This document shows, one piece after another, positions 1,382 through 61,773 of a DNA stretch of 64,000 nt. Position 1 is the first letter of the stretch. Each line of letters opens with the position of its first letter. The position numbers and the translations under genes were made by a program. The stretch is from Ostreococcus lucimarinus (Eukaryota): assembly GCA_000092065.1 (NCBI GenBank), contig CP000583.1; one strand, given 5' to 3'. A model generated the notes under the pieces. It had not been told where the DNA came from. It saw only the letters and a list, made by a program, of their open reading frames with translations, and searched no databases.

Positions 1382-2797
1382 TCACTCGTTCTTGAAAGAG
1401 CTGTCGTAGGACGCGGCGGGTTCCAATTTCTTCGCCTCCACGAGCTTGCGGACGGCTTTCATGAAATCGTCCTGAACGCAGTAATCGCGGTCGTCGCGAA
1501 TGGCGAACATTCCCGCCTCCGTGCACACGTTGCGCATGTCGGCGGCGTTGAATTCTTCGGCAATCTTGGAGATAGACTCGTAATCGATTTCACCCTCTTT
1601 GTTCAACTTTTGCGCGTGAATTTTCAAAACCTCCACGCGACCTTGCTCGTTCGGAAGCGGGATTTCAATCTTTCTGTCGAGACGACCAGGGCGCATCAAC
1701 GCCGGGTCCAACACATCGGGTCTGTTCGTCGCCATGATCATCTTGACCTTGCCAAGAACGTCGAAACCATCGAGCTGATTCAAAAGTTCCATGAGTGTAC
1801 GTTGAATCTCGCGATCGGCCGACGTGCCTTCGGAAAAGCGCTTGCCACCGATGGCGTCGATTTCGTCCATGAAGATGATGCACGGCTCGTGGTCCCGAGC
1901 GTAACCGAACATCTCTCTGATCAATCTCGCGGACTCGCCGATATACTTATCCACTATAGCGCTAGAAACAATCTTCAAAAAGTTTGCGTCGATGTTACTC
2001 GCGATCGCCTTGGCGAGGAGCGTCTTCCCCGTCCCTGGCGGTCCGTAGAGCAATACGCCCTTCGGCGGCGCGATGCCCACGCGCACAAAAAGTTCGGGAT
2101 TCATCAACGGCAACTCGATCGACTCTCTAAGCGCTCGAATCTGCTCCCCGAGCCCACCGATAGAGCTATAGTCCACGTGCCCCGTGGACTCGCTGAGCAT
2201 GTTAAACACTAACGGATCCACCTCTCGCGGCAGCGCGCGCATGATGGTTAACGTCGTCATGTCGAGCGTCACCCGCGTCCCGTTCACTAGCTTGCTCTTA
2301 TCGAGCTTCGTTCTGCACCCAACGACGTATCTCGGCCCCGAGCTCGCCTTCACGATGAATCTGTCTTCGTCCAACTGTCTCAAAACCTCCCCGATAATCT
2401 GCCCCATCGACTGCAACGCCTTCAAATCGTCCTCCGTCTTGTCAAACCTCTTTCGAATGTCAATCAACTCGAACCTCGACGCTCGCACTCTCGCATCCAA
2501 TTCCTACGTCATCGCGCGTCATCACGACAATAAACCGTCAGTCACTCGCTCGAATACGACGCCTCGCACCACCGTTCGCGTCCACGAACCATCCTTCGGT
2601 CTCTCCGTCGCGCGCGATCTCACCTTGTGCTGCAGCAACAACCCGGCGTACTTCCTCAACGCCTCCTTCCGCGGATCCGGCGGCGGCGCCCGCGGCGTCG
2701 TCATCGCTTCCCCAGAATCACCTCCCTGCGGCGTTTGCGGCGTTTCTCCCGTCGCTTGCGTCTCCATCGCGTCGTTCGCGCCGTCGTCCGTCGTCAT
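1382..2797 (-). CDS. RPT4: 26S proteasome regulatory AAA-ATPase subunit Rpt4 (PSMC6), two exons: 2797..2624 and 2503..1382
   Basis: The ORF 1382..2500 carries Walker A GPPGTGKT and Walker B (DEIDAIG) motifs and aligns to PSMC6, but the track start at 2500 is a TTG. Upstream ORF 2522..2797 (true ATG at 2797) ends ...[18 protein letters not shown] and is followed by GTGAGA. After removing 2504..2623, exon 2 starts [32 protein letters not shown]. The joined sequence aligns residue-for-residue with human PSMC6 [50 protein letters not shown]. Confidence 0.9.
2504..2623 (-). other. intron (120 nt) of Rpt4: donor AAG|GTGAGA, acceptor ACGTAG|GAA
   Basis: Homology-supported splice (see the Rpt4 feature). 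Contains GACTGACG 35 nt upstream of the acceptor and a GATGGTTCG motif. Confidence 0.85.
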
Positions 2798-2996
2798 CGC
2801 GGTCGCGATCTCGGTCCCAGTCTTCGCGCGTCTCTCGTCGCGATCGCGCGCGCGTCGGCGTCCGCGAGCGCGTCGAACGACGACGCGCGATCACCTCCGC
2901 GCGCTGTTCGCTCGCGCGTCGTCGCGGCGCGCACGTCGGCGTCGCGAAGTGCGAACGCGTCGTCCACCGAGTCAAACGACTTCACAGTCGCGCGCG

Positions 2997-4073
2997 ATGC
3001 CGCGCGTGTTCGTCCCGGGACGCGTGTGTCTGCTCGGCGAGCACTCGGATTGGGCCGGCGCGCGCGCGGCGCGCGATGGCCCGGGAGCGTGCGTCGTCGT
3101 CGGCACGCGCGAGGGCGTCAGCGCGCGGTGCGACGTCGGTGAAGGGCCGCGGTTTCGCGTGGTTGGCGCGGACGGCGACGCGTTCGAGTGCGATGTGAGC
3201 GTCGATGACGCGCTCGAGCGAGAGGCTTCGAGCGGAGGGTACTGGTCGTACGTCGCCGGGACCGCGCTGGAGGTTTTGAGGCGATTTCCGCGGTGTCGCG
3301 AGCGCGGGCTCGTCGTGGAGACGCTCGAGACGACGCTGCCGACGAGGAAAGGCTTGAGCTCGTCGGCGTGCGTCTGCGTCCTCGTGGCGCGGTGTTTCGG
3401 CGTGGCGTACGAGTTGGATCTCGAGCTGAAGGATGAGATGGAGTTGGCGTATCGAGGGGAGGCGGTGCACACGCCGAGCAAGTGTGGAGCGATGGATCAG
3501 GCGTGCGCGTACGGGAGCGAGCGCGTCGTGGCGCTCACATTCGACGGCGAAGACGTGGACGTCAGAGCGTGCGAGGTTGACGGTGAAATACACATCGTCG
3601 TGTGTGATTTGGCGGCATCGAAGAGTACGGTGCGGATTTTAGCCGATTTGCAAGGAGCTTTCGACCGAGGGGACGAGGCGCTGCGCTCGGCGCTCGGTGC
3701 CCGTAATCGAGCGCTCGTGGCCGAAGGATTAGACGCGATCAAACGCGGCGATGCGCGGGCTTTAGGCGCGGTGTATACGCGCGCACAGACCACATTTGAC
3801 GAAGCTGCGATCCACATCTGCCCATCCGAGCTCACGGCGCCTCGTTTGCGCGAGACGCTCGCCGCCGTCGCCCACGACGTTCCGGAAACTGTCTTTGGCG
3901 CGAAAGGCGTCGGAAGCCAAGGCGACGGTGCCGCGCAATTCGTGGCGGTATCTGAAGCAGCGGCTAAAACACTCCGACAGTACTTGCACGACTTTTCGGG
4001 CGGTCGGTTTAAAGTATTCGACGTCGTTCTGCGAGACGAAGAGCGCCACGCACGAACTAGCACACACAAATAG
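2997..4073 (+). CDS. GHMP-family sugar kinase (galactokinase/glucuronokinase-like)
   Basis: True ATG at 2997 (MPRVFVPGRVCLLGEHSDWAG). This resembles the galactokinase N-terminal signature GRVNLIGEH.DY. The GHMP motif PTRKGLSSSACVCV is present, and a C-terminal glycine-rich segment (GAKGVGSQGDGAA) is typical of GHMP kinases. The upstream part of the 629-aa track ORF is Arg/Ala-rich low complexity and is not considered coding. Confidence 0.7.
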   Translation: MPRVFVPGRVCLLGEHSDWAGARAARDGPGACVVVGTREGVSARCDVGEGPRFRVVGADGDAFECDVSVDDALEREASSGGYWSYVAGTALEVLRRFPRCRERGLVVETLETTLPTRKGLSSSACVCVLVARCFGVAYELDLELKDEMELAYRGEAVHTPSKCGAMDQACAYGSERVVALTFDGEDVDVRACEVDGEIHIVVCDLAASKSTVRILADLQGAFDRGDEALRSALGARNRALVAEGLDAIKRGDARALGAVYTRAQTTFDEAAIHICPSELTAPRLRETLAAVAHDVPETVFGAKGVGSQGDGAAQFVAVSEAAAKTLRQYLHDFSGGRFKVFDVVLRDEERHARTSTHK

Positions 4074-5938: not shown

Positions 5939-6571
5939 CTACAAATCCGGCGCTGGAAGTCCCGGCACTCGCCCCCAAACCGTCTTTGGTGTCTGTCCAG
6001 ACACATCACACAACACCCTATTGACGTCAACACGCCACTCCACCGTCGTCGATTCCGCGAACCGCCGCATCGCCTCCACGCGCTCCTCGCTCGCTCCCGC
6101 CACCCACAAAAGCGACACGTGCGGGTCCGGATCATCGTAATACTTTGGAAACCCGAGTGGAACGATCGCCTTATCCACTCTCTCGATCGCTCGCACCAAC
6201 GCCACCTTCGACGCGCTCGTCGACCCCTCCCGAAACCCCGCGGCGACGAACGCCCGCGAGCCGTCGTCGTTCGTAAACACCCGCATCGCATCAAACACCA
6301 CCTCAAACGCCTCCATATCCCTCAACTCTCGTCTCAAATTCCCAAACAACCGTTCCCAATCTCCCTTCACGCACGCAAACGTCCTCGACAGCGACACGTG
6401 CGCGCCATCCTCTCTCTTCAAATCGCTCACTTTTTCCAATTCCCCGAACGCCTCCACGAACGCGTCGAGCGTCTTCTCCGTCGCGCGCGTCGCCGCGCCC
6501 GCGCGCGCCCTGACGTGCGTCGCGTAGTTTCCCTCGACGTGTTCGAACGTCCGCTTCCGCGCCGCGCGCAT
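5939..6571 (-). CDS. USB1: U6 snRNA phosphodiesterase USB1 (2H phosphoesterase with two H-x-S/T-x motifs)
   Basis: 210 aa, ATG at 6571 verified. The N-terminal GNYATHVRA matches the USB1 GNWATHVY block. Two HxS motifs (HVSLSRT and HVSLLWV) are spaced as in USB1/Mpn1. Confidence 0.7.
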   Translation of the reverse strand: MRAARKRTFEHVEGNYATHVRARAGAATRATEKTLDAFVEAFGELEKVSDLKREDGAHVSLSRTFACVKGDWERLFGNLRRELRDMEAFEVVFDAMRVFTNDDGSRAFVAAGFREGSTSASKVALVRAIERVDKAIVPLGFPKYYDDPDPHVSLLWVAGASEERVEAMRRFAESTTVEWRVDVNRVLCDVSGQTPKTVWGRVPGLPAPDL

Positions 6572-6589: not shown

Positions 6590-6990
6590 CGCGCGTCCGA
6601 CGGTGCCGCGGCGCGCGTCCCGCGCGTCGCGTCCCGCCCGCGCGCGCGCCGATCGATCGTTCGATCGCGCGGTCGTTCGATCTCGATCGCTCGATCTCGA
6701 TCGGCGTCTCGGGACGCGCGTCTCGGCCGTCTCGGCCGTCTCGGACGCCGCACACGGCGACGACGCGCGCGGCGACGACGCTCGAGGTGCGCGCGCGACG
6801 ACGACGACGACGACGACGACGCGAGCGCGGGAAGAAAGACGCGCGCGACGCGCGCGATGGAGAAGACGCGACGACGCGACGCGAGACGCGCGCGACGGGC
6901 GAGACGCGAACGCGCGAGGGGAACGACCCCAACGGTCGAGGGTCGACGCGCGACGCGACGCGACGCGACGCGCGATCGGTGACTGACGGC
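6590..6990. repeat. GC-rich low-complexity/microsatellite spacer ((GACGCGCG)n-like, (GACGAC)n at ~6790-6815) in the USB1/DoxX divergent promoter
   Basis: Directly visible imperfect repeats of cgcgacg/gacgcgcg and a perfect (cgacga)x6 run. Confidence 0.8.
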
Positions 6991-7017
6991 GCGCGATCGC
7001 GACAGAAATCGCGCGCG

Positions 7018-7681: not shown

Positions 7682-10600
7682 TCAACACTCCGCGCGCAAC
7701 GCCTCGAGGATGAAATCGTTCACCGTCGGGCACATGGCGTCGGAGAGGATCTCACACACGTCTAAAAGCTCTTGCGCATCTTCCGCGTCCATCGCTTCGT
7801 CGAGCCATTCGAGAGTGTCTTTCGCACCGGATATCATGGAAGGGATATCGTGGAGTCGCTCGTTCAGGGTGACGGCTTCCGGCGAGCCCGTCGTCGTGGA
7901 CGCCGGCGCTTTGCCGATGGTCACCGCGTTTCCGAGGTCCGGTCGACGTTTAGGTTTGAACCACTCAAACATTTTGTTCACCAAACCGAAATAAATCAAC
8001 ATCGGTTTTAGCTTGGCGTAGCGATCGAGTTCGTTAAGCTGTTCCCACGGAACGCTCGCAGAGACGTCGACGCTCGCCGGGTACGTCGCGATTCTCGCGC
8101 ATTCGTACTTCTTCGTGTGCCTCAAAATCGCTATCAGCGCGTTGCGTCGAGACGCTTCCCATTGATCGTGCGACCAGACCGCGAGCGAAAGCACGAGTGC
8201 TGCCGGTAGGAGCGGTGAAAAGCTAAACTCGCGATCGTTCCATATCTCATCTTCGCACGAAAGGCGGGCTAGCACGGCGTTGTACTCTTCCAATCCTTTC
8301 TGCGGGCACAATGAGACTTGATGGACGAGCAATCGCACGAGGTGCGGAAGGAGACTCATGTTGCTATCTTTTCCACCGCCACGACAGTCAGCGCTGAACG
8401 ACGCCCCCATGGCGAATCGACCGAGAAGTAGGCTGACGTCCCAAGCGACTTGTCGCGCGCGCGTCGGCGGCGAAATGAACGCGCCGACAGAGAAGCAATT
8501 TTGCCACCACGCATCTACCGCGGCGGCGTATGAAGCATCTGTGACCATATTCCCCATCACCGGTAGCAAGTTGTTGCATAGTGTCTCACTGTTGCGTAAC
8601 GCAGCGCCTTCCCACTCGCGCTTGGGAGTTCTCAACGCGACGTCCGCGCGCTTGGCGGATTGGTGACACGAAAAGTGAATCGCGTTGAAGTGCGATACAG
8701 TGCATACAGTCTGAGACATATCTCCGTTCGCAGATGGAGTTGATGCAAGTTTATTGAAGCAATAGATCCCGAGAAGCTCGTTCGGTTTCAACACGTATCC
8801 TTCAAAGCAAACTCTACAAACAATTGAGTCTTGTTCGCTTTCCATAGCCATCGAGTCGTACCCTCGCAGAGATCTGGGAGAGTGAGAGACGCCGATGGTA
8901 GACGCTCCCGGACTCGAGGAGTTTTTGACTACTGTCATGCCCATTTCAGTGAGCATTTGTTGGCGCTTTGCGAGTGCCTTGCGACGATTCGCTTCTTTCG
9001 TCTCTGCTCGCAAATTATCCAAATGTTTCTGTACCAACTCGGATCCGCTCGCAAACGTCTCCAGACAGTTCTCTGCCAAAGTTCCAATATCACGCTCGGT
9101 GACTGATTCAAGTTTATGTAGTAAGTCAAGCAGTGTCGGATGTTTGGTGACGTCGAGAGTGTAGCCCAGTGTGATTCCGTTCAAAAGCTCGAGCGCAAGC
9201 GGTAAGCCACTCCGCTTCATCGCCTTATTCCACGCGTCAGAACCACGATCTTGAGACATTTCTGCCCCGAAAGCTTCAGCTTCGATGTAATTCGTGATAA
9301 ACGACACAGTTCCTTGTGACCATATCGCTTCAAGCACGCGTTGACCTGAAAAATCTCGCGGGATCGCTTCAGCCAATCTCGTTGCACATTCGAGCTCGAG
9401 CTGTAGCGCACCGTGCTGAGAGTCTTCCTCGCTCATCTCGTCAAGACGTACAAGTTTACGAATGGAAGCGTCAAAGTTCTTCGCCATGATTGCTTTTGAT
9501 TCAACGGTTGATCCCGCGAGCCTTGGAATCACACGCGCGAGGATATCGGCCTCATGCCTCTCTCGTGCTCGAATGAGCTGCTTGAGTTGAGACAGGAAAA
9601 TTTCAACGTGATTCATCTCGTGCTCGCGCACCGCTATCGCAATCGTCTGCAGCGAAGAACTACTTTTTTGAAGGCGCGGTGAACCAGGACGATGCGCTGT
9701 TTCGCTGCTCTCTTCTAATTCGCGAGCGAGCATACTGCTCGTCGATGCTGACGCTTTCAATTCACTCATTGATCCGTGGGAAGTGTCTTCTTGTTCCTCG
9801 CGCAACAGCGTCTCAATGACGAGAAGGAGTCCCTTGCCTGAACGCGAGTTCTCAGTGAAAGCTCGCGCGGCTTCGTCAAGTAAACTTGCGAGCGCTCCAA
9901 TCGCGAGCATATGTTGTCTATTCTTCTTCACGTAGCATGCTGATCGAAGGATTTCAAGAAGTTTTGCCGAAGCGTCTTCACCGCCGGCGTACAATGCAGA
10001 TGAATTGTGCCGAATCTTTGGTAACAGTTGAATCAAAGTTTTAAAGCCAACATCTTCTTGGAAAACATTTGTGCCAGCAAACTTTGTTTCGATGTCTTCG
10101 TCTTCCTCTTGTACCGGCGCGAGTTCATCAACGCGCTCTTCCGTCGCTTCGCCATCCAAACCGCTCAGGCGGAAAGTCACCGCCATTGGTGGACCGATTG
10201 GATCGTTTGGAGAAACATTTTGACGTCGCTGAGTGCCATTGAATAATGAAGGTATCCAAATTCGTTCGAAAACATCTTCCACGGAGAGATCAAGGCTGAT
10301 TATTTGATTCGAAACCAATAACTCCATCCCAAAATCATCTTCGAGCAGGCCTAACATTTCCAACTCATGACAGATGAGATTCTTGACATCTCTCATCAAC
10401 GGCTGCGCGCTCATTTGTGCAGTCGAGTATGGATTTCGCGCCATCGTGCCGGGAATGAACTCTTCTTGACTCGCACTTTTCAGTAGTCGTAAAAGATACA
10501 CCTTCGATGGCGGAGCTCGAGGTAATACCAACATCGCAAGTTCATTCAATATGATGCACAGTGGCAGACGCGTCTTGTCAACTTGGGGTCGAACATGCGC

Positions 10601-13600
10601 TCGAGCAATTTTGACGCAAATCTTCGCCACTTCTTGCTGCATCGATTCTGATGACTCCAAACAGAATGATAGAAGTTCATCAAACGTCTCAGCGGCATTC
10701 ACAGCGCTAGGCATTTGACAAATTTGCAAAGTACGCGCACACAAGACAGAGCGGACGAGCGTCTCCAATCCAGTTTTGTTGAACTCTTTCATAAATTTTG
10801 TGGACTCCTTGAAAGTATCCCTTAAGAGCATCGAAATCGCATGTAATCCAGATCCGATGTCAACATTCGTTGATGCGAAAAGCGCCTTGTCGGATGCGGT
10901 GAACTTGCAACCAATATCCAATTCTTTTTGAAGTATCGATAGTAAAATGTCCACGAGTTTGCGAGTGTCATTCAACTTCATGATGATTGACTCGCTACGA
11001 AGCGTGAGACTCAGGGCGCTGAGATAATCCGCATACGATTCCTGTTCGATGCTTTTTATTGAATCGATGAGAAGGCTTCCAACCTCGACGTTCATCTCAT
11101 CGTCTTGCCGCAACACGAGACCAAAAATTTGTAGAACTTCTCGACGAACAAACTTTGAACCGCAGTGGAGTGCAGATACAAGTATAGGAATTAAACCAGA
11201 CATATTCGCAGATTCTTTCATATCTGCGATGCTGTAATTGTCCAACACTTTCGCTGCGGCGACAATTTCCTGCAGAATGCTAGAGTTCGTCATCGCTTGC
11301 TTCACTAGATCGAGAGCCGGGAGGAGAGTGTTCTCAACGAGAACTGCATTTGAACTCAATTGTTCAGAATTTAATGTCGTGCACGCCAAGGAAATGAGCG
11401 CTGATCGCTCACCGCCCGGAGTCAAAGCCGTTCCCGCTTCCAAGCGATATGTACTAGCGTGTACCAAATCTTTAAGAAGTAAGATGTCTTGATTGCTCTG
11501 TGAAATCATCGTCCCATGCCAGGCGTTCACCTGAAGTAATGAATCGCTTGCTCTCTCAAAGGCAGCCTCGCAAAGAAATTTGGCAACTTCATCGCTCCCG
11601 GCTGCCATGTTTGATAAAACAGTGCGAACTGTGTTGCAAACCGTCAAATTAGTGATGCGAGGGTTGAGCATGCGGTTAAACAGATGGCGGTGTATGTCAC
11701 CTTGGCTGAGCGCTTTGACGCCCAAAGGCGTACGTGAAAGACTTGTGCATAATTTCAATGCACAATTCAAATAATCGCAACAGACGCCATAGTTTCCAGA
11801 TACGTTTCGTAAATCCGTTTCATCTTCCGAACTTGCTTTTGATAAGAATCGCAAAATCGCGTCGTGAATTGCGCCGCACTTGTAATTTGCGGCGATGAAT
11901 TCCATTCTTCGACCTCTGCCCACAACTTTGAACATGTGCTCAACATCTCCAGATCCCTCACCTTGCTCGAAAAGCACTCGTCTTAACGAACTTTCTGTGC
12001 TTTCGATACAGTCAGTGACACGCTTTATAGATTCCGTCTGCAGTTTCAGCTCCTCGACTGCGTTGGCGAGATCATCGCTGCTGAGCAGTTTTGGATACCG
12101 TGTGCACAACGTCGGGTGTGCACTCAATGTTGTCTGAATCTTGGCGTACCGACAGTGCCCACACTCGCTGCATATGAAAGCATCAATCTTCTCATAGTTG
12201 ATGTTTCTACAGTAACGGCATTGATACGCGTTCTCCCGGCAATTGGTGCAGATGCCATGTTTTGTGTCTGTCACTTGCCGAGCGCATCGAGGACAGTGTA
12301 ACATGGTCATCATCTTTGCTTGAACACTCTCGTGGAAAGATTTGAAAACAAAGTTCAGAGCGGATGCATCGACCGGAATTTCAAATTCAAGCTCGGCGAT
12401 GTGCGCTGAAGCAGAAAACTTCAGTGTACCGAGCAATTGCCAACGAGAGGAATCAAAAGTGCGCATGGAGCTTATATCCTTGTTCGCATCCGTACGCCAA
12501 ACTTCAACTTCCTTGACATGAATATAGCGTTTAAGCTCCGTCACGTTCATAGAAATCGACTGGATCGTCATCGATTCACGTAATTTTGTCATCGCACTAT
12601 TTTTTGTGAAAGCTTGGCTCTTCTTCAGGCTATCGAGTGTATGATCTGTGAACTCATGGCATGCAATGTACGACGTCACGTCGCGCATACTTGGCTCTGA
12701 CTCCAACCAGTACTTGTCAGACGCGTCACTTTGTAAAAGCTGACGTTGCTGCAGCGCTCGATAAAGATCTGCACGTGGATGATCGCTGACTCTCAATAAC
12801 GTGTCTTTAACGCCTTGGCAGAATTTTTCAATGCTTGTCTCAAACATAGCGATGGCATCCGTGTCAGTCATCACGATGCTCTTCGTAAACTCCAGGAGCT
12901 CATTCGCTCGATGCCCGTAGTTCCTCATGCTTTCCATCAGTACCATCAACACTCGCATTACGTCATCTCGATACGTCTCGCAAGAGTACCACATGGCTTT
13001 TAAGATGCGCGTTGCGGCAGTACGTGTATCCGATTCAACGGCAAGGAGTCCACACTTGTTGACGACAACATCCAAGTGTTGGACTATTTCTCGCATGATT
13101 GAAGTTCTGCGATGATGATCGTTCTCATCGCAGTCTCGGTAGGACTCGATGATGTGCGATATTAAGTCACATACGCTTGTGGCGAAAGCCGCCGGAAGCT
13201 GCGGCACTGCTTCCATCAAAGCTGCAACCAACTCGACCGCAAAATCAACATGCTCGAGGAAATATCGCAAGCTTTTACGACACGCCTTCGCTACTTGCGT
13301 AACTTTAAAAATAGCATCTTTCACTTCCATCAGCTCATCATACGCTACTTCATCAACATACCAATGTGAAGTAAAATTTCCACTCACGAGCTTCCGGAGA
13401 ACTGGTGCTAAATTCAACAACTCTCCAGCTCGAACTAGAAGAGCCACCTCGCCCTCTTCGTCGCCAGCGAGTTGTTTGATCATAGAAATAGCATTTTCGG
13501 AAGGACATTCTGGTGTCAGCGCGGACACGCGGGCGAGAACTTGGAGCCACTCACTTTTCTCACGCGCAGGTAAAGTACTGAGATCGAGCTTGCGAGCATT

Positions 13601-16600
13601 CGCTGAGGCATGGAGAATTGTAGAATCGAGAGCATTGATGGCGACGTCTCGAACGTTCTTCATGGGAACTTGTTGTTGGAGCAAAGCTCCATATCCTTTT
13701 TCGGCCGGCATCTCTTCTTTATCGTACGAATCGATGCGTCTTAAAAGTTCGCACGTCAACGCATACGAGTGCAAAAAAGCCTCGCGTGCGTCTTTCGTTG
13801 TGATCTCCTGTAACTGTGAGCATTCAGCCGCAATTGCGAGGCGCCAAGTAATTGCGTCGTACTCAAGAATGTCTCCACGCAGGGGCGGCAGCTTGCATAA
13901 ATCTGGATTTAAGCATTCTGAGTATGCTTCAGACAGCGATCGAACAAGTGTAGCTTGCGAACGGTACAACACGTCGTCGTTGAGCTGCATGATAGCCGAT
14001 ACAAGGTCTCGGATGCCGTTCGCTTTCGCGCACTTGTCTCGTTTGAACGCCGGATTGGGAACGAAAATACACCTTGCTTGATCTAAATTCAAGCGCTCAT
14101 TTCCACTGATCGTGGTCAGATGCCAAAGCAATGTGTCTGATGCCGCGGCGCGAACGTCCTCGCGATCGGATTTGATGAGTTTTAAGACAGATTCGACAAG
14201 ATTGGCGTCACGTTCATGAGTGAGCACAGCGATGAGAGCGTGCACGATGTGAGGTACGATCTCGTCGGCATCCCATGCTCCAGCGCCAACATGGAGCATC
14301 GCAGTCGCACTATTTGCCAATGTGGCTAAATAAGGAGATGAGTCCAACAATGCGTTTGGACGTCGGATTGCGAGACGGCCAAGTTTTCGCATCGCGCAAT
14401 AGAACTCAAAAAGGTCGTCGTCTGAGACACTCATCGGCCGCTTCAAAATTCGAGGACAGATGCGTTCGGCAACCTTGTGACCGAATAATAACGTTGAGTT
14501 ATCTTTGATGTTAACTGCTGTCAGCGTATTATCGCGAGTGTGGACACTCAATACTTTCCAGGCGATAAACTTCGCTGAACGATGTGCTGGGGTTTCCAAT
14601 GTAACAAATTGCCTTTTCCTCAACATTGATTCGTAGCACACGCGCAGCTTGCTCGATTTCAAGTCAAGCTCGCAGTGTCGCAGCGCCTGGATGATTGAAG
14701 TCGTACCGCTCAGCCACGCTGAAGAATCTGTGATCTCACTATCCTTTTGACGAACCAAGTGGCGCCTAGCACGACTCACGTGAGATGCAAGCGCATCATC
14801 AATCGCCTGAGTTTCGCTATCACGCTCAACTTTCATGTCTGCTTCAAATACATCCTCGTTGCACGCATACACCTCCATTCGGTCGATACGTATGCATAGC
14901 TGATTCACAGACTCAGCAACAAATTTGAGCTTTAGCGGTTGCGTACTACTTTTGATGGTATTAGACTCTGAGCATGTGAACGGCACGTCGTACCATCTCT
15001 TTGATTCGCGTTCAAATTTGACCACTCTTCCCCCAGGAAGGATGAGCTTTGAAGGCGCATGAGACTGCACCGTCATACCGCCAACATGAATTCGAACGCC
15101 TCGAATAACACGTAGATCTCCGCCTCCTAACTCCAATGTTAAATGTGCATCGTCAGAATTTGCCGATTCTATGTAACCGTCGTCTGATTGTAGGACGCCA
15201 CGCAACGCCGCCGGAAGTGATCCTCGATTGAAAGATCCGCCGAAGTCAACATTCGACGTTACCTTGGCAAGTTTCTCAAAAAAGTCGTACGGAAATCTCG
15301 TCACACTCGTCGAAACTTCTTCAGTACGTGCTTCTAAGAATTGACTTTTCGGCGTAGGTGACGACTTCACGGCTTCGTAAGAGTTGATTTGCATCGAACC
15401 ATCGCTGCGCAAAATGATCAGTGCAGATGGAAATTCTCCAGATCCCGTTTTCTGATATCCCACATGACCAACGACGCTTGCAGAAGAAGGAGGTATGGAG
15501 ATTATGCTCGCTTCTAAACCATCAAACACCAGTAGTGCAGCAGAATCGCCCATGGAATCCGTACTGACAAAAACTTGCGCAGGAATTTGCAACGTTGCAT
15601 CTGGACCCGGTTTGTTTGGTAAACAGAAATCTGACACCCTAAATGAGTGATGACTATCATTCAGCTTAGCTTTATTGAGCATTGCGACGGTCACTTTATT
15701 TTCCTCGTTTCGTTCGACACACGAAATGATAACTTCACCGTCGTTCGTGCTGACGATGATAACGTCGTGCGTTTCTGAGTGCATGACAGCTTGCGCACCA
15801 TTCGTATTTTGAATGTCGATTTTACTCGACTCAGTCAATTGAACGATCTCGTTTGCCTGTTTCATTCGCACTTCTTGCACATGCACATCACTTTCACTCG
15901 TTGTCATTGCGTTGCATACATGACCACGGAGTGCAGAGGCGAACCACGCTGACGAAGTGATGCAAGCCGGCGAAGTAGAAATTGTACACACGGGTGTGTA
16001 TGCATCGCAACTCAGGTCATACACACTAGTTGAGTGCTGTCCAGTGATGGAGAACAAATACGTAGAGTTCGAAACCCAAGAAGCGTCTATGATGAGCTCA
16101 AAATCATGCTCACCCGCCGGGGTTCCAAGTCGCAACCTGTCGAGAATTTCTCCGCCTCGGCCAAGTGTGCATATTTGCACCTCGTGTAAACCGACAACGG
16201 CGAGGTAATCTTTGTTCATATGGTTGAATTGAACCTTCATCACCTCGAAACCAATCAAATTCCTAGACAATGGTCTGATACCAACCTTATCTCCGAGTCG
16301 AACTGCCTTATTCTCGCTATTCGTCGGTTGCGCGCCTACGACGATATTCGCGTCCAGAATTGAAAGCTTGTCGCCTTCCGCTATGGCGAGATGCCCATCT
16401 CTCGAGCAAGCTGCGGTATTTCTGACAATGACACCGGAAAGCAGTAACTCTTGTACTTGTGCTTTGCTAGGTACCGGTCCGACTTCGAAGGATCCAGCTT
16501 TGAAATTACGAGCGACGTGTAGCGTGGCGTCAGTGTCTTTGACTTTGATCTCCAAACCATCATCAGCCAAGCTTTGGTCTACTCGTGTAACATCGTCTTC

Positions 16601-19111
16601 ATGTAACGGCCTGAACCACGATACGAGTACACTTTCTAACTTGTCCTGCACTTTCGCTTTTTGCAAAGCCATCTTAAGCGCTTCGAGCGCTGAGACAGAG
16701 CAAAGACGTCGAGCGAGGTTCGGCTCGTAAGATTCTTCCATGGATTCTTCACCTTCAGAATCACTGCCTGGATCTATTTCGAAGCGATCGGCCGCCTTTT
16801 CTGACGTTGTTCGACGTGCATTTACGTCTTCCAAGTCGCGTCCGTTTAAACAATAACATCTGTGTTGGGGCGCTGGAGTCGCACCGTCCGCACCGCAGTC
16901 GCAGAAAAATCTTGACTTTCTAGAGTACGCCACTCGATGTCCCGAATGACAGGTTTTCGCGCAGTTGCTGCAGCATCCACGGCTTGCAACAAGATTACAG
17001 TCATAGCAGAAATACCAATGCTGTTCTTGAAACGACTCACCACTTGTCACGAACGTACAGAGCCCAGATGATACGTCCGTCATATCGTTCGGCTCTGCCC
17101 CGTCGTTCGTATCGTCGTGTGGTAACAGTATTCGGTCGCGCAAGCGGTCGCGATTTCCTTCATCTTGCGCGACAAGGCGCCCCCAAAGCTGTGGGAGCGT
17201 GTTACGTGCGGATTCTTCACCTGAAGGTCGGTCGACGGCGAGCGTCGCAACGGCAGCGTCAAGGACCGCATCCAAGCGCGCAAGTCGGCTTTCGAGCAGT
17301 TCATCCGATGGATTGTCATCCAGTAGATTTTCTGGCATCGCAAATAAATTTCCCAACTCGTCTTGAAGGTTCAAGGCAACGGTCCTAGCGTTCTCACTCG
17401 CAGCTTCTAAATCGTCCTCTGCCTGGTCCCGAAGTGCGAGTTGAGCGTCATTTGTCTCCGTCGGCGTGATATGAGCGGCAGCGAGCTGTTCGACGAGCGG
17501 CATCGACACCAGTTCGTGATTCGCGTTTTTCCTTTCACGCAGCACAAAGCTTACCATCCGTATGGCAGGAATAAATCTTAAAATCTTTGCATCTTCTCCG
17601 GCGAATAGTTTCGCTCGTTCCAAAGTCGCAAGAAGGCACTCCGCAATTGAAGTCGGTCCGTCGCGCTGGCAGCCTAAACCAAGTCGAATCAGCGTCAATG
17701 GGGCAGAGTCTAAAATCAATTTATTCGCTTTCGCCACCGTGAAGCGTTCATCCAATAGGAACGAATCGGGGAACTCTCCTAGAACCGTGGCGAGCAGTCC
17801 GGTCACGCACCCGTGAGATTCATCATTTACGTCGTCGTTGCTCATCATTGCTTCCAGAAATTTCACCACGGAATCTCGAACGTCTAAATCACTGCCGCAG
17901 AGTCTAATCAACACACTCTTTGCCACTGCTTTGCGAGGGAATAAAGCGAAAGATGAATCGATCTTGCGTGCATTTTCCGTGCTCGAAACAGCCACTGTGT
18001 ACAGTGCGCTCGCGAGGGCGCACGACGTTTCGCCCGACAATTCGGTCCAATCTGACGAATTGACGAAGACTGCGACGACGCCTGCGATAAACTTATACTC
18101 ATTATCCGTTAAATGCGGCCCGAGAAGCGTGCACGCCCTTTCGCATTCCAAAACGATGCGATCCGTCACGCGGATCTCTGTGTTCGTGTTAAGCGCCTCC
18201 AAGCACAACTGCGCCATCAGCCGTGGCACCTCTCCCAATCGCATCGCCGTTTTCCCGAGCTTTTGACGCAAAAGAACTGAGCATCGCTCAAGCGTTGAAC
18301 GGTACAGCTCGACGATTAAACCATCCATGGGCGAACTCACCCGCGACGTCTCGCCGCTCACGGAGAATTCCTCAACCGACTCGGAGAGCGCGTGCATGAG
18401 CGCAACCTCTTCGCTCGCCGCGAACTCGCTCACATCGCTCAACGCCCCACTTTCGCAGCGCAACCGTTCCATTATCTTCGCAGACCACCTCTCGGCGTAC
18501 GTTCGCGACGTGCACGCGCGAAGAACGTCTCCCCACCTCGCCGCGAAGTCGCCGTCTCTCCCCGCGTCGGCGCGCTCGAGCGCGAACGCCGCCATCTTCA
18601 TCGCCGTAAAGTACGCATCATAAACCGCCTGTTCATCATCTCTCAACGCCGCACTCAACGCGCTTCCGCACGCCGTGAACGTCCCCACGCACGCTTCACA
18701 AGCCTCCAACGCCGCCGCGCGTCCTCGCGTCGTCGCTCGCCCTCCCAAGACCTCGTCCAATCCGTCCCCGCGTTCGACCAGCGCCTTCAGGCAGTGCGGC
18801 GCAAGCGCGTGCGACGCCATCTTCGACGACCCACGCGACGTCTGTTTCGCCGCCCGTCGCAGCGCTCGCACGAGCTCTTCCAGCCCATCGTTCGCGTCGT
18901 CTTCCTCTTCGTTCGTCCCGATGCGCGTCGCCGTCGTCGTCCTCGTCATCATCGTCGCTTCCGCGTCCCCACCGTCGTCGTCGTCCATCGCGCGCGCGCG
19001 CGCGTCCTCGCGAGACCTCGCGTTCGCGCTCTCGCGCGTCTCGTCGTCCGTCGCCGCGCGCGCGACGCCGCGGTCGCCCGCGCGTCGCGTCGCGTCCGAA
19101 TCGGCATTCAT
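7682..19111 (-). CDS. UBR4: Giant E3 ubiquitin ligase UBR4/BIG homolog (3809 aa) encoded by one uninterrupted 11.4-kb ORF
   Basis: ATG at 19111 verified. It contains a UBR-box zinc finger (CTFVTSGESFQEQHWYFCYDCNLVASRGCCSNCAKTCHSGHRVAYSRKSRFFCDCGADG, near nt ~16.9-17.1 kb). A Cys-rich module (HCPRCARQVTDTKHGICTNCRENAYQCRYCRNINYEKIDAFICSECGHCRYAKI) is present. The C-terminal block ...CRVCFEGYVLKPNELLGIYCFNK...SHFNAIHFSCH...REWEGAALRNSETLCNNLLPV is characteristic of UBR4/BIG. No in-frame stop over 11,430 nt. Confidence 0.85.
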   Translation of the reverse strand: MNADSDATRRAGDRGVARAATDDETRESANARSREDARARAMDDDDGGDAEATMMTRTTTATRIGTNEEEDDANDGLEELVRALRRAAKQTSRGSSKMASHALAPHCLKALVERGDGLDEVLGGRATTRGRAAALEACEACVGTFTACGSALSAALRDDEQAVYDAYFTAMKMAAFALERADAGRDGDFAARWGDVLRACTSRTYAERWSAKIMERLRCESGALSDVSEFAASEEVALMHALSESVEEFSVSGETSRVSSPMDGLIVELYRSTLERCSVLLRQKLGKTAMRLGEVPRLMAQLCLEALNTNTEIRVTDRIVLECERACTLLGPHLTDNEYKFIAGVVAVFVNSSDWTELSGETSCALASALYTVAVSSTENARKIDSSFALFPRKAVAKSVLIRLCGSDLDVRDSVVKFLEAMMSNDDVNDESHGCVTGLLATVLGEFPDSFLLDERFTVAKANKLILDSAPLTLIRLGLGCQRDGPTSIAECLLATLERAKLFAGEDAKILRFIPAIRMVSFVLRERKNANHELVSMPLVEQLAAAHITPTETNDAQLALRDQAEDDLEAASENARTVALNLQDELGNLFAMPENLLDDNPSDELLESRLARLDAVLDAAVATLAVDRPSGEESARNTLPQLWGRLVAQDEGNRDRLRDRILLPHDDTNDGAEPNDMTDVSSGLCTFVTSGESFQEQHWYFCYDCNLVASRGCCSNCAKTCHSGHRVAYSRKSRFFCDCGADGATPAPQHRCYCLNGRDLEDVNARRTTSEKAADRFEIDPGSDSEGEESMEESYEPNLARRLCSVSALEALKMALQKAKVQDKLESVLVSWFRPLHEDDVTRVDQSLADDGLEIKVKDTDATLHVARNFKAGSFEVGPVPSKAQVQELLLSGVIVRNTAACSRDGHLAIAEGDKLSILDANIVVGAQPTNSENKAVRLGDKVGIRPLSRNLIGFEVMKVQFNHMNKDYLAVVGLHEVQICTLGRGGEILDRLRLGTPAGEHDFELIIDASWVSNSTYLFSITGQHSTSVYDLSCDAYTPVCTISTSPACITSSAWFASALRGHVCNAMTTSESDVHVQEVRMKQANEIVQLTESSKIDIQNTNGAQAVMHSETHDVIIVSTNDGEVIISCVERNEENKVTVAMLNKAKLNDSHHSFRVSDFCLPNKPGPDATLQIPAQVFVSTDSMGDSAALLVFDGLEASIISIPPSSASVVGHVGYQKTGSGEFPSALIILRSDGSMQINSYEAVKSSPTPKSQFLEARTEEVSTSVTRFPYDFFEKLAKVTSNVDFGGSFNRGSLPAALRGVLQSDDGYIESANSDDAHLTLELGGGDLRVIRGVRIHVGGMTVQSHAPSKLILPGGRVVKFERESKRWYDVPFTCSESNTIKSSTQPLKLKFVAESVNQLCIRIDRMEVYACNEDVFEADMKVERDSETQAIDDALASHVSRARRHLVRQKDSEITDSSAWLSGTTSIIQALRHCELDLKSSKLRVCYESMLRKRQFVTLETPAHRSAKFIAWKVLSVHTRDNTLTAVNIKDNSTLLFGHKVAERICPRILKRPMSVSDDDLFEFYCAMRKLGRLAIRRPNALLDSSPYLATLANSATAMLHVGAGAWDADEIVPHIVHALIAVLTHERDANLVESVLKLIKSDREDVRAAASDTLLWHLTTISGNERLNLDQARCIFVPNPAFKRDKCAKANGIRDLVSAIMQLNDDVLYRSQATLVRSLSEAYSECLNPDLCKLPPLRGDILEYDAITWRLAIAAECSQLQEITTKDAREAFLHSYALTCELLRRIDSYDKEEMPAEKGYGALLQQQVPMKNVRDVAINALDSTILHASANARKLDLSTLPAREKSEWLQVLARVSALTPECPSENAISMIKQLAGDEEGEVALLVRAGELLNLAPVLRKLVSGNFTSHWYVDEVAYDELMEVKDAIFKVTQVAKACRKSLRYFLEHVDFAVELVAALMEAVPQLPAAFATSVCDLISHIIESYRDCDENDHHRRTSIMREIVQHLDVVVNKCGLLAVESDTRTAATRILKAMWYSCETYRDDVMRVLMVLMESMRNYGHRANELLEFTKSIVMTDTDAIAMFETSIEKFCQGVKDTLLRVSDHPRADLYRALQQRQLLQSDASDKYWLESEPSMRDVTSYIACHEFTDHTLDSLKKSQAFTKNSAMTKLRESMTIQSISMNVTELKRYIHVKEVEVWRTDANKDISSMRTFDSSRWQLLGTLKFSASAHIAELEFEIPVDASALNFVFKSFHESVQAKMMTMLHCPRCARQVTDTKHGICTNCRENAYQCRYCRNINYEKIDAFICSECGHCRYAKIQTTLSAHPTLCTRYPKLLSSDDLANAVEELKLQTESIKRVTDCIESTESSLRRVLFEQGEGSGDVEHMFKVVGRGRRMEFIAANYKCGAIHDAILRFLSKASSEDETDLRNVSGNYGVCCDYLNCALKLCTSLSRTPLGVKALSQGDIHRHLFNRMLNPRITNLTVCNTVRTVLSNMAAGSDEVAKFLCEAAFERASDSLLQVNAWHGTMISQSNQDILLLKDLVHASTYRLEAGTALTPGGERSALISLACTTLNSEQLSSNAVLVENTLLPALDLVKQAMTNSSILQEIVAAAKVLDNYSIADMKESANMSGLIPILVSALHCGSKFVRREVLQIFGLVLRQDDEMNVEVGSLLIDSIKSIEQESYADYLSALSLTLRSESIIMKLNDTRKLVDILLSILQKELDIGCKFTASDKALFASTNVDIGSGLHAISMLLRDTFKESTKFMKEFNKTGLETLVRSVLCARTLQICQMPSAVNAAETFDELLSFCLESSESMQQEVAKICVKIARAHVRPQVDKTRLPLCIILNELAMLVLPRAPPSKVYLLRLLKSASQEEFIPGTMARNPYSTAQMSAQPLMRDVKNLICHELEMLGLLEDDFGMELLVSNQIISLDLSVEDVFERIWIPSLFNGTQRRQNVSPNDPIGPPMAVTFRLSGLDGEATEERVDELAPVQEEDEDIETKFAGTNVFQEDVGFKTLIQLLPKIRHNSSALYAGGEDASAKLLEILRSACYVKKNRQHMLAIGALASLLDEAARAFTENSRSGKGLLLVIETLLREEQEDTSHGSMSELKASASTSSMLARELEESSETAHRPGSPRLQKSSSSLQTIAIAVREHEMNHVEIFLSQLKQLIRARERHEADILARVIPRLAGSTVESKAIMAKNFDASIRKLVRLDEMSEEDSQHGALQLELECATRLAEAIPRDFSGQRVLEAIWSQGTVSFITNYIEAEAFGAEMSQDRGSDAWNKAMKRSGLPLALELLNGITLGYTLDVTKHPTLLDLLHKLESVTERDIGTLAENCLETFASGSELVQKHLDNLRAETKEANRRKALAKRQQMLTEMGMTVVKNSSSPGASTIGVSHSPRSLRGYDSMAMESEQDSIVCRVCFEGYVLKPNELLGIYCFNKLASTPSANGDMSQTVCTVSHFNAIHFSCHQSAKRADVALRTPKREWEGAALRNSETLCNNLLPVMGNMVTDASYAAAVDAWWQNCFSVGAFISPPTRARQVAWDVSLLLGRFAMGASFSADCRGGGKDSNMSLLPHLVRLLVHQVSLCPQKGLEEYNAVLARLSCEDEIWNDREFSFSPLLPAALVLSLAVWSHDQWEASRRNALIAILRHTKKYECARIATYPASVDVSASVPWEQLNELDRYAKLKPMLIYFGLVNKMFEWFKPKRRPDLGNAVTIGKAPASTTTGSPEAVTLNERLHDIPSMISGAKDTLEWLDEAMDAEDAQELLDVCEILSDAMCPTVNDFILEALRAEC

Positions 19112-24253: not shown

Positions 24254-24459
24254 GCTGCGCGCGCTTCGCTGGGCCGTATTTAATACTGCCGGTACTTTAT
24301 TTTCAATCTCTCGTTTTTCATATAATTAACAAGAAGGTAACGTAAATGAGAAACGAAGCGCTCCGCGCTCGTCGCTCGCAACCAACGCGCAAACATTTGC
24401 CATCGCGTACTATCGTAGACGAACGGCGACGAAACCATCGTAACAGAAGGCGCGACTGA

Positions 24460-36045: not shown

Positions 36046-36108
36046 AAAGTTTCTTGAATTTTTTGTGATACTATTACAACCGATTTTGACGACGCGCCCC
36101 GATAGATG

Positions 36109-37113: not shown

Positions 37114-37208
37114 CGCGAGTCAAAGCGCGAGCGAGTGACGGCGCGTCAGACCGCGACGCGAGCGCGAGCGTGTCCACCGAAACGCGCCGAGGCGAGAGCA
37201 GACGAAAG

Positions 37209-39122: not shown

Positions 39123-39258
39123 TACGCGACGTCACAAAATCACCGAATCGCCGCGTTCCGCGCGCGCGATCGACGTTCATTAGAGGATTGTTACGCAGGG
39201 CGATTTGCCGACTCACCGACTCCCAACTAACGAACTCGCGTCACTTCCCGTCGACGGC

Positions 39259-39873: not shown

Positions 39874-39954
39874 GCGTTTCGAATCGTTGGGCGGTTTATT
39901 CTTTCGTCTGCGCTCGCGCCGCGGCCGTTTTAACTTAATTTACATTTATGGTCA

Positions 39955-40938
39955 TCAGCTGAGGTTGCTAATCAATGTGAGCGAAAACGCACGCCATAAA
40001 TATGCCATAAAGGTGACATCCCCGTTGTACTCCTCCGACGTGGCGCCGAACGCGCGAGTGAGCCTCGCGCGTGACTCCACGAGCGCCGCTCGACAAGAAT
40101 CGAGCTCTGGTCTCGCGACATCGAACGAGAGCAACACCACTCCAGCGTCCCTAGACACGTTCCAAAACGCGCTCGGGTGATAATCGTTCACGACGTGCAC
40201 AGAACCCACCTCGAGCGCGCGCGTTTCGTCCCCCGAACGCAACCCAGCGGCTTTGCCGTGCAATCCCGCGTCTCGGGCCAACACCACGTGCGCGCGCCAG
40301 TACCCGTCCGAGAGCCCCGTCGTCACGCGTCCCGTCGCGCTCGACGCCCCGCCCGCCCCAGGACTCAGCACCCAAATCTTTCCATTGAATCCACCCACCG
40401 ACGCCACGACCGCGGACGTGCTCGGAAAGCACCTCGCCGCCAAGCGACTCGGCGCGTCGAGCGTCGCGTCGTGTAACGGAATCGTCCCCCATCCCGCGTC
40501 CCGCATCTTCTCGCTCGGCTGCCGCGCGTCCGCGACGTCTCCACCGACCCCACTCAACTCACCCTTCCCCTCGCACGCTCCTCGCACGAACGACGCTAAC
40601 TCTCTCGCGAACGCCGGCGCGTTGTCCCGAACCGCCTCCGCGAACGTCGCCGTCGTCTCCCTCTCGAACGCCCCATCGCCTCGTTTCCGTCGGTACCGTC
40701 CCAGCGCGAGTCCATAAAACGCAAACACCGGCCGTCCGCACCACGCGCGCCAGTACGGGAGCACCAGCGCGCTGACGCACAGCGCGCACGCCGTCCCGAT
40801 GTGTCCCTTTCGTTCGTATCCTCGCGCCGACAGCGTCAGGACGAGCGCACCGTACGGCGCCGCGAACGCCATCCATCGCGCGTGGTCTCCGAGCGCTCGA
40901 GTCCTCGGTCGTCGTCGCGCCGCGCGCTCGCGCGCCAT
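39955..40938 (-). CDS. Hypothetical membrane protein (two N-terminal TM helices), family not recognised
   Basis: ATG 40938 verified. Hydrophobic helices AFAAPYGALVLTLSA and TACALCVSALVLPYWRAW, then a ~230-aa soluble domain without recognisable motifs. Confidence 0.35.
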   Translation of the reverse strand: MARERAARRRPRTRALGDHARWMAFAAPYGALVLTLSARGYERKGHIGTACALCVSALVLPYWRAWCGRPVFAFYGLALGRYRRKRGDGAFERETTATFAEAVRDNAPAFARELASFVRGACEGKGELSGVGGDVADARQPSEKMRDAGWGTIPLHDATLDAPSRLAARCFPSTSAVVASVGGFNGKIWVLSPGAGGASSATGRVTTGLSDGYWRAHVVLARDAGLHGKAAGLRSGDETRALEVGSVHVVNDYHPSAFWNVSRDAGVVLLSFDVARPELDSCRAALVESRARLTRAFGATSEEYNGDVTFMAYLWRAFSLTLISNLS

Positions 40939-41027
40939 CGCGTCGTCCCGAAATGCGGAAAATTACATTCATTAATCTTCGCGCGCGCGCGCGTCACTCG
41001 GCGACGCGCGGACGCGCGGACGCGACG

Positions 41028-60001: not shown

Positions 60002-60035
60002 TTCACAATTACATGCACAGCGTAATAATACGTTT

Positions 60036-61773
60036 TCATCCTAATCTGTCCGCCATCGCTCCCCAGGTATCGTTGAGGCGACTGTACGGTTTTCTGTCGT
60101 CGCGGCGCGGACCTCCTCCACGACTCGGTCCTCCTCGCCCTCTATCGCCTCCTCGCCCTCTATCGCCTCCTCGCGATGGACCCGGCGGGCCGGGTGGAAC
60201 GATGTGCGCCCACTTGCAGCTATTACCGCGTCGGCATCGACCGACGCTAAAGTCGTAGCACCGTTGCTGGCCGCCGTTCCCGCCGTTCGCCGATACTCGA
60301 TGGCCGTTCAAGACGTCGCGCATGGCGTCTCTAGCCCGCCCACGCGCGCCCTTATCGTGACTGAAAATGAGCACTAGTTCTTTCTCTGGCTCATCATCCG
60401 GATCGGGTATGTTGAAGCAAAACGTTCCAGTGTTTTGTTCGATGAGCCGGAGCGTGGCGCCGCCTGTGCCGTAGATACGGCTGATGCCGCCGAAGCCAGA
60501 TTTACACGGGAAAACGGTGACATCGTTGCGATCTTTAAACGAAATATCCGTTCCTAACGTCCCTTTCTGTTGCTTCAACAACCATCGAATGTAGTCCCAA
60601 CATCTCGCGCGTTCGTCGCGATCGCCAGTCATGATGCCGAGCATGCCGACGTACTCAAACGAGCACCCGGACGCCTTCGCGATTTTCCTTCGCGTCGATC
60701 CCTGCATCGAAAAATATACACTCAGTCAGTTTCCGTTCATAGCGCAGTTTGATGAGAAGATAAAACGAAAAAGAGTGGTTGATGAATGTACGGGTAGACA
60801 TGAAAGCGTTCACTCGCTGGACGGCATACTGGCCCACAGCGGCGAGACAGAAAACACCCGCATATTTCAGACAGAATTTATTCTTCGCACGAAAGAGAGC
60901 TCGAGTGATCTAACGTCCGACATGGTTTTGCCCCGGACGGATCTACTCGTCGTGCGTAAAATCAACAAAGAAGTACGAGAAAACGAATCGCGCGCGCGCG
61001 CGATCGAGACGACCTACCTCACGCCCCACCGCGAAACTCAACTCTTCCTCGTTCGCGAACGGCCACACGTCGAAACCCCAGCCGTCTCCCAAACCGTCTC
61101 CCGGCTGCTCAAACCTAATCTTCAGCTTCTTCTCCTCGTCCACGAACGTCCCAGGAATCTTACGCTCGATAGAACTCATCACTTGAAGTTCGCTTCCTCG
61201 CCTGCCTTTCCTATCCCCGCATATAATCAACTTCTCCGGCGCGTCCTCGGGATCCGTCGTCGGCTTGCCAAAGAACAGCAGCGTCCCGTTGTCGGCTTCA
61301 ATCCTTCGCAAACCTTGACCCGCCTTCCCCGTGACGTACGCCGTGCAATCCCCGGGCACTTCCATCACGCTCACATCCTCCATCACCGTCGACGTATCGA
61401 CGATTATCTTCCCCACTCGCTGTCGCAGCACCCACTCCACGTATCGCTTCGCCTTCGCGCGCGCCTCGGCGCTCCCCGAAATGTCCAGTCTCTGCCCCTC
61501 CGCGGCGTCGCCCTCGATCGCGGTGATCTCCAGCCGCGCGCCGGAGACGCGCATGAGCTTACGCTTCGTCGCGCCCTTGGCGCCGATCAAGAAACGGGCG
61601 TCATCGGTGGTTATCGTCGTCGAATCGACCTCGTCGGCGGGTCGCGGCGGCGCCGTCGACGACGGGTCGCGCGGCGCGTTCGCGTCGACGGGGGCGTCCC
61701 GGACGTCGACGTCGGGTTCGGGGGAGCGCTGGCGACCACCCTCATCGTCGTACGTCGGGACGTCCGCGTCCAT
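60036..61773 (-). CDS. KH-domain + CCCH zinc-finger RNA-binding protein. Exons ~61773..61018 and 60701..60036
   Basis: Exon 1 has KH-like GxxG loops (FLIGAKGATKRKL, YVTGKAGQGLRRI). Exon 2 has another KH-like unit, a CCCH finger (CYDFSVGRCRRGNSCKWAH) and RGG/GDRGRGG repeats. The junction is GAG|GTAGGT at 61017, then an AT-richer 316-nt intron with AACTGACTGAG 25 nt before GATGCAG|GGA at 60702. The track 'MQ' start of the downstream ORF is intronic. The likely ATG is MDADVPTYDD near 61773. Confidence 0.65.
60702..61017 (-). other. intron (316 nt) of KH/CCCH gene: donor GAG|GTAGGT, acceptor GATGCAG|GGA
   Basis: The upstream ORF runs into a stop 24 codons past the donor. The intron is visibly AT-richer than flanking exons. 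ACTGAC branch-like motif present. Confidence 0.6.

Follow-up and report, generated by a model that had tools for sequence, protein, structure and literature searches.

The DNA analysed here, referred to below as the window, is a 64,000-nt stretch of contig CP000583.1 of the green alga Ostreococcus lucimarinus (GenBank assembly GCA_000092065.1). Seven genes in the window are interrupted by a total of eight introns: those for the 26S proteasome ATPase Rpt4, a CDPK, an FKBP, a GATA/PHD protein (two introns), calnexin, CCT8 and a KH/CCCH protein. All eight introns carry the hexanucleotide ACTGAC near their 3′ end, and all are located exactly where an initial annotation, made from the sequence alone, had drawn them: four have been verified by contig gaps or exact protein matches and four by homology across the junction. 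The window is rich in CGCG, with an overall G+C (GC) content of 0.58, and its genes are arranged as in O. tauri CAID01000003.2 (O. tauri chromosome 3). Moreover, out of four products of intron-less open reading frames (ORFs) submitted to exact look-up, three are identical to O. lucimarinus CCE9901 proteins (XP_001416993.1, XP_001416693.1 and XP_001416709.1). From its GC content, the synteny and these exact matches, it follows that the window belongs to a normal-GC chromosome, outside the low-GC BOC1/chromosome 2 region, and not to the low-GC half of chromosome 2.

The individual introns are described below with their donor (a slash marking the exon–intron boundary), their motif, the distance from the end of ACTGAC to the last intron base, and their acceptor; strands are given as + or −. 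In the Rpt4 gene (1382-2797, −), a first exon of 58 codons (2624-2797) is followed by an intron of 120 nt (2504-2623; CAAG/GTGAGAT, GACTGACG, 33 nt, CGTAG). The CDPK gene (22567-24253, +) starts with 11 codons (22567-22599), specifying MGVCGSSPAVP, upstream of an intron of 214 nt (22600-22813; GCCG/GTGCGTC, GACTGACC, 36 nt, AGTAG). The FKBP gene (24340-25057, −) has a signal peptide encoded by the 40 codons of its first exon (24938-25057) and an intron of 115 nt (24823-24937; CGCG/GTGCGCG, GACTGACG, 25 nt, CGCAG). Two introns interrupt the GATA/PHD gene (+): intron 1 of 66 nt (25423-25488; CGAG/GTGGGAC, GACTGACG, 24 nt, CGCAG), behind a first exon of 27 codons (25342-25422), and intron 2 of 97 nt (25559-25655; TGCG/GTGCGCG, GACTGACG, 21 nt, CGTAG), behind exon 2 (25489-25558). 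Calnexin (29769-31757, −) likewise has its signal peptide in exon 1 (31616-31757; 47 codons plus 1 nt), next to the longest intron, of 366 nt (31250-31615; ACGG/GTGCGCG, GACTGACT, 30 nt, TGTAG). The CCT8 gene (+) combines a first exon of 15 codons (37209-37253) with an intron of 273 nt (37254-37526; AAAG/GTGCGGG, GACTGACTGACG, 24 or 20 nt, CGTAG); the two distances reflect a tandem branch motif, ACTGACTGAC, at 37497-37506, which offers two possible branch adenosines 4 nt apart. The KH/CCCH gene (−), finally, is interrupted in mid-gene by an intron of 316 nt (60702-61017; TGAG/GTAGGTC, AACTGACT, 23 nt, TGCAG), and its KH domain resides in a first exon of 252 codons (61018-61773).

Seven of the eight donors conform to GTGNG and five of them to GTGCG, the remaining one being the GTAGGT of the KH/CCCH intron; over six positions they read GTGAGA, GTGCGT, GTGCGC (three times), GTGGGA, GTGCGG and GTAGGT, as initially annotated. 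ACTGAC occurs in every intron, 21-36 nt from the intron end, and is preceded by G in seven; the extended form GACTGACG stands at the position given above in four introns, and in five when the second copy of the CCT8 tandem is counted. Each intron ends at the first YAG past ACTGAC, which had been claimed as well; the only AG dinucleotides between motif and acceptor (CDPK and KH/CCCH) occur in the context GAG, and these are skipped. The acceptors amount to five GTAG and three CAG, which corrects the earlier count of four GTAG, three CAG and one TAG. Pyrimidines make up 33-52% of the stretch between branch motif and AG, and a polypyrimidine tract is absent. The introns are 66-366 nt long with a GC content of 0.48-0.73, lowest in the KH/CCCH intron (0.48). 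Seven of the eight are positioned in the first 25% of their coding sequence (P about 4 × 10⁻⁴ under uniformity). The description of the set as 5′-proximal, behind first exons of 11-58 codons, holds for six genes (58, 11, 40, 27, 47 and 15 codons) and fails for the KH/CCCH gene with its mid-gene intron and 252-codon first exon.

Splice junctions confirmed independently of the motif

We assembled the seven proteins that result from excision of the eight introns and tested them by Pfam, exact protein look-up, contig alignment and homology. Their Pfam identities are those of an AAA proteasome ATPase, a kinase with EF-hands, an FKBP, a GATA protein, a member of the calreticulin family, a TCP-1 protein and a KH protein. 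By exact look-up, the spliced Rpt4 protein (431 amino acids) equals the ORF of MMETSP Transcript_2427, the FKBP (160 amino acids) is XP_001416984.1, the CDPK (490 amino acids) has an exact match in the protein collection, encoded on short contigs, and two Logan contigs, 3.5 and 8.4 kb long, encode exactly the spliced CCT8 (546 amino acids). The annotated CCT8 model, XP_001416701.1 (541 amino acids), uses the same junction and begins at the second ATG.

Furthermore, introns present in the window are missing from 14 contigs (L005-L018), each derived from a separate sequencing run and 97.5-100% identical to the window. The gaps measure exactly 120, 214, 115 and 273 nt and correspond to 2504-2623 (Rpt4; L013-L018), 22600-22813 (CDPK; L005-L010), 24823-24937 (FKBP; L005 and L007) and 37254-37526 (CCT8; L011 and L012). 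In other fetched contigs that cover these regions, some of nearly 1 Mb, the introns are present. Most of the intron-less contigs are of transcript size (1.5-2.2 kb), and in L005 and L007 two introns on opposite strands are missing simultaneously; together with the MMETSP origin of one of the spliced products, these features point to RNA-derived assemblies. Two of the intron-less, transcript-like contigs, L011 (corresponding to 35544-42121 of the window) and L005 (22519-25065), span several adjacent genes on both strands, which suggests overlapping transcripts or untranslated regions (UTRs) in a very compact genome. L009 includes 32 nt of the FKBP intron, suggestive of unspliced or antisense RNA.

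The junctions of the other four introns are bridged by homologous proteins. In calnexin, the spliced N-terminus ETF..W..S..KYT/GKA lines up with the ETF..W..S..KYxGK that distant calnexins conserve, the ORF-only calnexins of other Ostreococcus lineages diverge exactly upstream of the junction glycine, and in O. tauri an intron of 172 nt occupies the same place inside the annotated 535-amino-acid model. The Pfam GATA match (residues 24-56) spans the first junction of the GATA/PHD gene, CGSE/ETPMWR, with the consensus spacing C-x4-TPxWR, and the sequence spliced at the second, LCNACG/LIFKRGWWC, is contiguous in a distant homologue (P0249: LCNACGLLWKRGWFC). For the KH/CCCH gene, six distant homologues (P0259-P0267) contain SFAVGRE/GSTRRKIAKASGC without interruption, and an Ostreococcus relative with a 69% identical KH protein (P0250) carries a read-through insert of about 103 amino acids exactly at this junction, its intron showing GTACGC, GCTGAC and CGCAG.

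We compared the window introns with those at syntenic loci of O. tauri (L019), of an uncultured Ostreococcus-like organism (contig L020) and of another uncultured relative (contig L022). Among 11 orthologous introns, eight carry ACTGAC, two ATTGAC and one GCTGAC. In O. tauri, the introns of the CDPK gene (GTGCGTC, GACTGACG, 24 nt, ATAG) and the calnexin gene (GTGCGTG, GACTGACG, 32 nt, CGTAG), as well as GATA intron 1 (GTGCGCG, GACTGACG, 25 nt, TGTAG), have the extended motif, and GATTGACG is found in GATA intron 2 (L019 9907-9998, +; GTGCGTC, 22 nt, CATAG) and in the FKBP intron (L019 9233-9357, −; GTGCGAT, 32 nt, CGCAG). L020 features GACTGACG in its CDPK intron (GTGCGCG, 49 nt, CGCAG) and in both GATA introns (20 and 21 nt; CGCAG and CGTAG, respectively), and GACTGACC in its calnexin intron (36 nt, CGCAG), where the contig ends before the donor. 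The KH intron of L022 (about 2674-2983) shows GTACGC, CGCTGACC, 36 nt and CGCAG. The interiors of the orthologous introns do not align with those of the window; as the motif is kept while the interiors have diverged, the core TGAC and its flanks are held by selection. The claim that ACTGAC is invariant thus stands for the window (eight out of eight) and not beyond it, given ATTGAC and GCTGAC in the orthologues and a published genome-wide frequency of 87%. The FKBP intron is absent from L020 (gene at 8916-9398, −, orthologous to the FKBP gene of the window) and present in O. lucimarinus and O. tauri: its presence varies within the genus.

Motif frequencies and alternative explanations

We consider, with a probability of about 0.93, that the eight introns are canonical U2-type GT-AG spliceosomal introns, of the strong-signal class present on all normal-GC chromosomes of Mamiellophyceae. 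The initial reading of ACTGAC as the branch signal of stereotyped introns in a compact, intron-poor genome is borne out by the excision data, the fixed position of the first YAG, the conservation in orthologues and the literature (PMC2483917; PMC3879977). U12-type introns have the donor [AG]TATCCTT and the branch TCCTTAAC near the 3′ end; the GTGNG and GTAGG donors and the ACTGAC branch rule out this minor-spliceosome class.

In the window as a whole, ACTGAC is not enriched (21 copies versus 23.4 ± 4.8 in first-order Markov simulations). Nine of these 21 copies, against an expectation of 0.15, fall within the introns, which total 1,567 bases on the sense strand (P about 9 × 10⁻¹⁴), and the probability of finding the motif 18-40 nt from the 3′ end in all eight introns is about 5 × 10⁻²². 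On both strands of the approximately 7.5 kb of non-coding sequence, ACTGAC occurs 10 times: nine copies in the eight introns and one in a 5′UTR stretch. The rule put forward for re-annotating this organism, scanned as GTG[ACG][GC]...ACTGAC...12-45 nt...YAG, performed poorly, yielding 13 matches in the window, barely above the 8.9 ± 3.0 expected by chance. Four of these matches were rejected as introns, since they overlap uninterrupted coding ORFs. Two of them are in coding sense with normal codon scores in frame, one at 42906 (+) in an LRR gene, where the segment encodes recognisable LRR repeats, and one at 12016 (−) in the giant gene described below; the other two are antisense to the coding ORF, at 15563 (+) in the giant gene and at 38373 (−) in CCT8.

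The absence of overall enrichment and the near-chance yield of the composite rule would suit the view that the regularity is circular, that is, that the boundaries were drawn with GTG...ACTGAC...YAG in mind, that eight out of eight follows by construction, and that the motif plays no part in splicing. This view is extremely improbable and has largely been refuted already: intron-less contigs, exact spliced proteins and homology confirm the boundaries without recourse to the motif, 11 orthologous introns have kept the motif while the rest of their sequence turned over, and a genome-wide set based on expressed sequence tags (ESTs) shows 87% ACTGAC (PMC2483917). Could the intron-less contigs instead represent the genomes of strains in which precise intron loss has occurred? 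L011 and L013 do span several genes on both strands, as genomic contigs would, and one lineage does lack an intron (L020, in its FKBP gene). Nevertheless, all 14 contigs, each from another run, are without intron while the other fetched contigs, up to nearly 1 Mb, bear it; to this can be added the transcript-like size of most of them, the concurrent lack of two opposite-strand introns in L005 and L007, the identity of the spliced Rpt4 product with a transcriptome ORF, and the 32 nt of FKBP intron in L009, which unspliced RNA would also include. We therefore rate the genomic origin of these contigs as very improbable.

Mobile introns offer another source of a shared motif: introner elements are a mobile intron family of Micromonas, and the IE-C introners of strain RCC299 carry GACTGACG (PMC3879977), so that ACTGAC might be conserved as part of a repeat. 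The chance of this is close to nil, as an all-against-all BLAST of nine sequences returned only short CGCG/GACG low-complexity matches that also occur in intergenic and coding DNA, the lengths range from 66 to 366 nt, and the intron positions shared with O. tauri imply that the introns are old rather than recent insertions. Alternatively, ACTGAC at the 5′ end of genes could be mainly an expression element acting at the DNA or RNA level, such as a factor-binding site or a mediator of intron-dependent enhancement, instead of a branch point. The position of seven introns in the first 25% of the coding sequence, and the over-representation of introns in highly expressed O. lucimarinus genes (PMC2367439), are compatible with that function. 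The position of the motif is, however, set relative to the 3′ splice site (21-36 nt) and not to the transcription start or the ATG, in introns that vary more than five-fold in length; it is also present in the mid-gene KH/CCCH intron, and it matches the universal CTRAY branch consensus. We regard a primary role in expression as most unlikely; an enhancing effect might exist alongside the branch function.

Several points weigh against the assignment to the U2-type strong-signal class. With only eight introns, which were found via missing N-termini and the ACTGAC motif itself, the motif frequency of eight out of eight and the 5′ bias are inflated by ascertainment. That the A of ACTGAC is the lariat branch we infer from the fit to CTRAY and from the constant spacing between motif and first YAG, and likewise infer the RNA origin of the intron-less Logan contigs from their structure and size. 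The spliced GATA/PHD, calnexin and KH/CCCH proteins, and six variants with polymorphisms observed in cluster representatives, were not found by exact look-up in the protein collection; the support for the corresponding four junctions comes from homology.

A candidate ninth intron and the gene models of the window

The sole non-coding ACTGAC of the window outside the eight introns occurs at 6787-7005 (+), in a probable ninth intron of 219 nt predicted from its signals (CGAG/GTGCGCG, GACTGACG, 18 nt, GACAG). It is located in the 5′UTR of a DoxX-like gene of 189 amino acids and ends 12 nt before the ATG at 7018. The partial GenBank model XP_001416695.1 (266 amino acids) renders this stretch as an Arg-rich N-terminal tail, and hence appears to translate a 5′UTR intron. 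Its 25-nt junction had no match in metagenome contigs; the 26-nt calnexin junction, meant as positive control, was equally unmatched, so this collection is evidently poor in spliced complementary DNA. Contigs L023 and L026 differ from the window by less than 1%, too little to provide a conservation contrast. Adjoining the candidate is a gene for an HVSL/USB1-type 2H phosphoesterase (5939-6571, −; Pfam PF09749, E = 5e-27), a family involved in U6 small nuclear RNA (snRNA) 3′-end processing.

Intron signals bear directly on the gene models. In GenBank, O. lucimarinus calnexin is a partial protein of 364 amino acids without the exon for the signal peptide, NCBI has no entry for Rpt4 or CDPK in spliced form, and the O. 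tauri PHD/GATA model (L019 10001-11779) starts with MIYKRGWWC, both exons of the GATA finger missing. The "M" residues at 2500, 22853, 25658, 37563, 50371 and 62962 in the supplied ORF list indeed correspond to TTG or GTG codons, and bacterial-style ORF starts proved misleading for these intron-bearing genes, as the initial annotation had warned. The intron signals can serve to repair gene models of Ostreococcus and of marine metagenome bins, in which N-termini are cut short or mistranslated by bacterial-style gene callers; the value of these signals is practical rather than conceptual.

The giant gene mentioned above (7682-19111, −) consists of a single ORF of 3,809 amino acids for a UBR4/BIG-like E3 ligase, with an orthologue that contains zf-UBR and E3_UbLigase_R4; its central part (8-16 kb) has a GC content of 0.48-0.49, compared to 0.57-0.63 around it, and a GC3 of only 0.54. 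The 1.2-kb "gap" at 31758-32951 was considered for hidden exons and instead holds a small conserved gene on the + strand (about 32137-32730), the product of which is 61% identical in amino acids to that of O. tauri L019 16553-17011, has a W-rich hydrophobic C-terminus and matches no Pfam family. Rfam and transfer RNA scans of the window gave no matches, and thus no sign of known RNAs hosted in the introns.

Recognition of the introns and comparison with known systems

The universal branch consensus is CURAY, which ACUGAC fits. By general spliceosome biology and the published analysis of this species, ACUGAC would be the branch-point sequence, which SF1/BBP recognises first and which later pairs with the GUAGUA box of U2 snRNA; the G of ACUGAC would engage in a G-U wobble, and the bulged A at the fifth position would act as branch nucleotide. 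Splicing would then use the nearest downstream YAG as 3′ splice site, GAG being skipped. As in other intron-poor eukaryotes, most of the information for recognition would reside in the branch motif and the GUGCG donor, a polypyrimidine tract being absent. The 5′ bias (seven of the eight introns) may stem from preferential loss of 3′ introns, from retention of expression-enhancing 5′ introns, or from both. The GC-rich branch–acceptor stretch devoid of a polypyrimidine tract and the atypical GUGCGU donor led us to consider a yeast-like, branch-point-dominated, U2AF-independent recognition, distinct from that of the signal-poor, AT-rich introns of chromosome 2, so that two modes of intron definition would coexist in one cell; co-adapted U1 and SF1 components could be involved. 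We think this rather unlikely; the possibility of two modes is an open question raised earlier by Irimia & Roy (PMC2483917).

The donor, the ACTGAC motif and its spacing were published for O. lucimarinus in 2008, and the present finding is therefore correct and not new. Irimia & Roy (2008; PLoS Genet 4:e1000148, PMC2483917) reported ACTGAC in 87.2% and GACTGACG in 66.5% of the EST-confirmed introns outside chromosome 2, an atypical donor consensus GTGCGTG (4.8 bits), a broad peak of branch-to-AG distances at about 20-35 nt and a preference for CGCAG acceptors, and took these features as a sign that intron-poor genomes have converged towards strong 3′ signals. The introns of the window agree with theirs in species, ACTGAC, GTGCG donor, CGCAG/CGTAG acceptors, normal-GC compartment and distance (21-36 nt versus 20-35 nt). 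No substantive difference is seen: the motif is present in eight out of eight here against 87% genome-wide, and one intron (KH/CCCH) has the GTAGGT donor and a lower GC content (0.48).

Verhelst et al. (2013; PMC3879977) described AG/GTGCGT with NCTGAC as the canonical mamiellophycean intron, in Micromonas. Donor and motif are shared with the window introns, as is the low number of introns per gene outside low-GC outlier regions, whereas the branch is reported to lie 43-52 nt upstream of the acceptor in Micromonas and is found 21-36 nt upstream in the window. The BOC1 introns of Mamiellales, on the other hand, are dense, AT-rich and 40-65 nt long, with no detectable branch motif (PMC3491373). 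They share with the window introns the genome, presumably the spliceosome, and the GT-AG boundaries; the window introns differ in GC content (0.48-0.73), length (66-366 nt) and the presence of ACTGAC in all, and by these three features membership of the short AT-rich class is ruled out. With the introns of Saccharomyces cerevisiae and other hemiascomycetes, those of the window have in common a near-invariant, information-rich branch, a strong donor, a weak or absent polypyrimidine tract, and a low number with a 5′ bias, although the sequences themselves differ: ACTGAC rather than the ACTAAC of the yeast TACTAAC box, and GTGCGT rather than GTATGT at the donor. Earlier literature had established that the branch sites of intron-poor genomes converge on a high information content, and the likeness of the Ostreococcus introns to those of hemiascomycetes is an independent convergence in a green alga.

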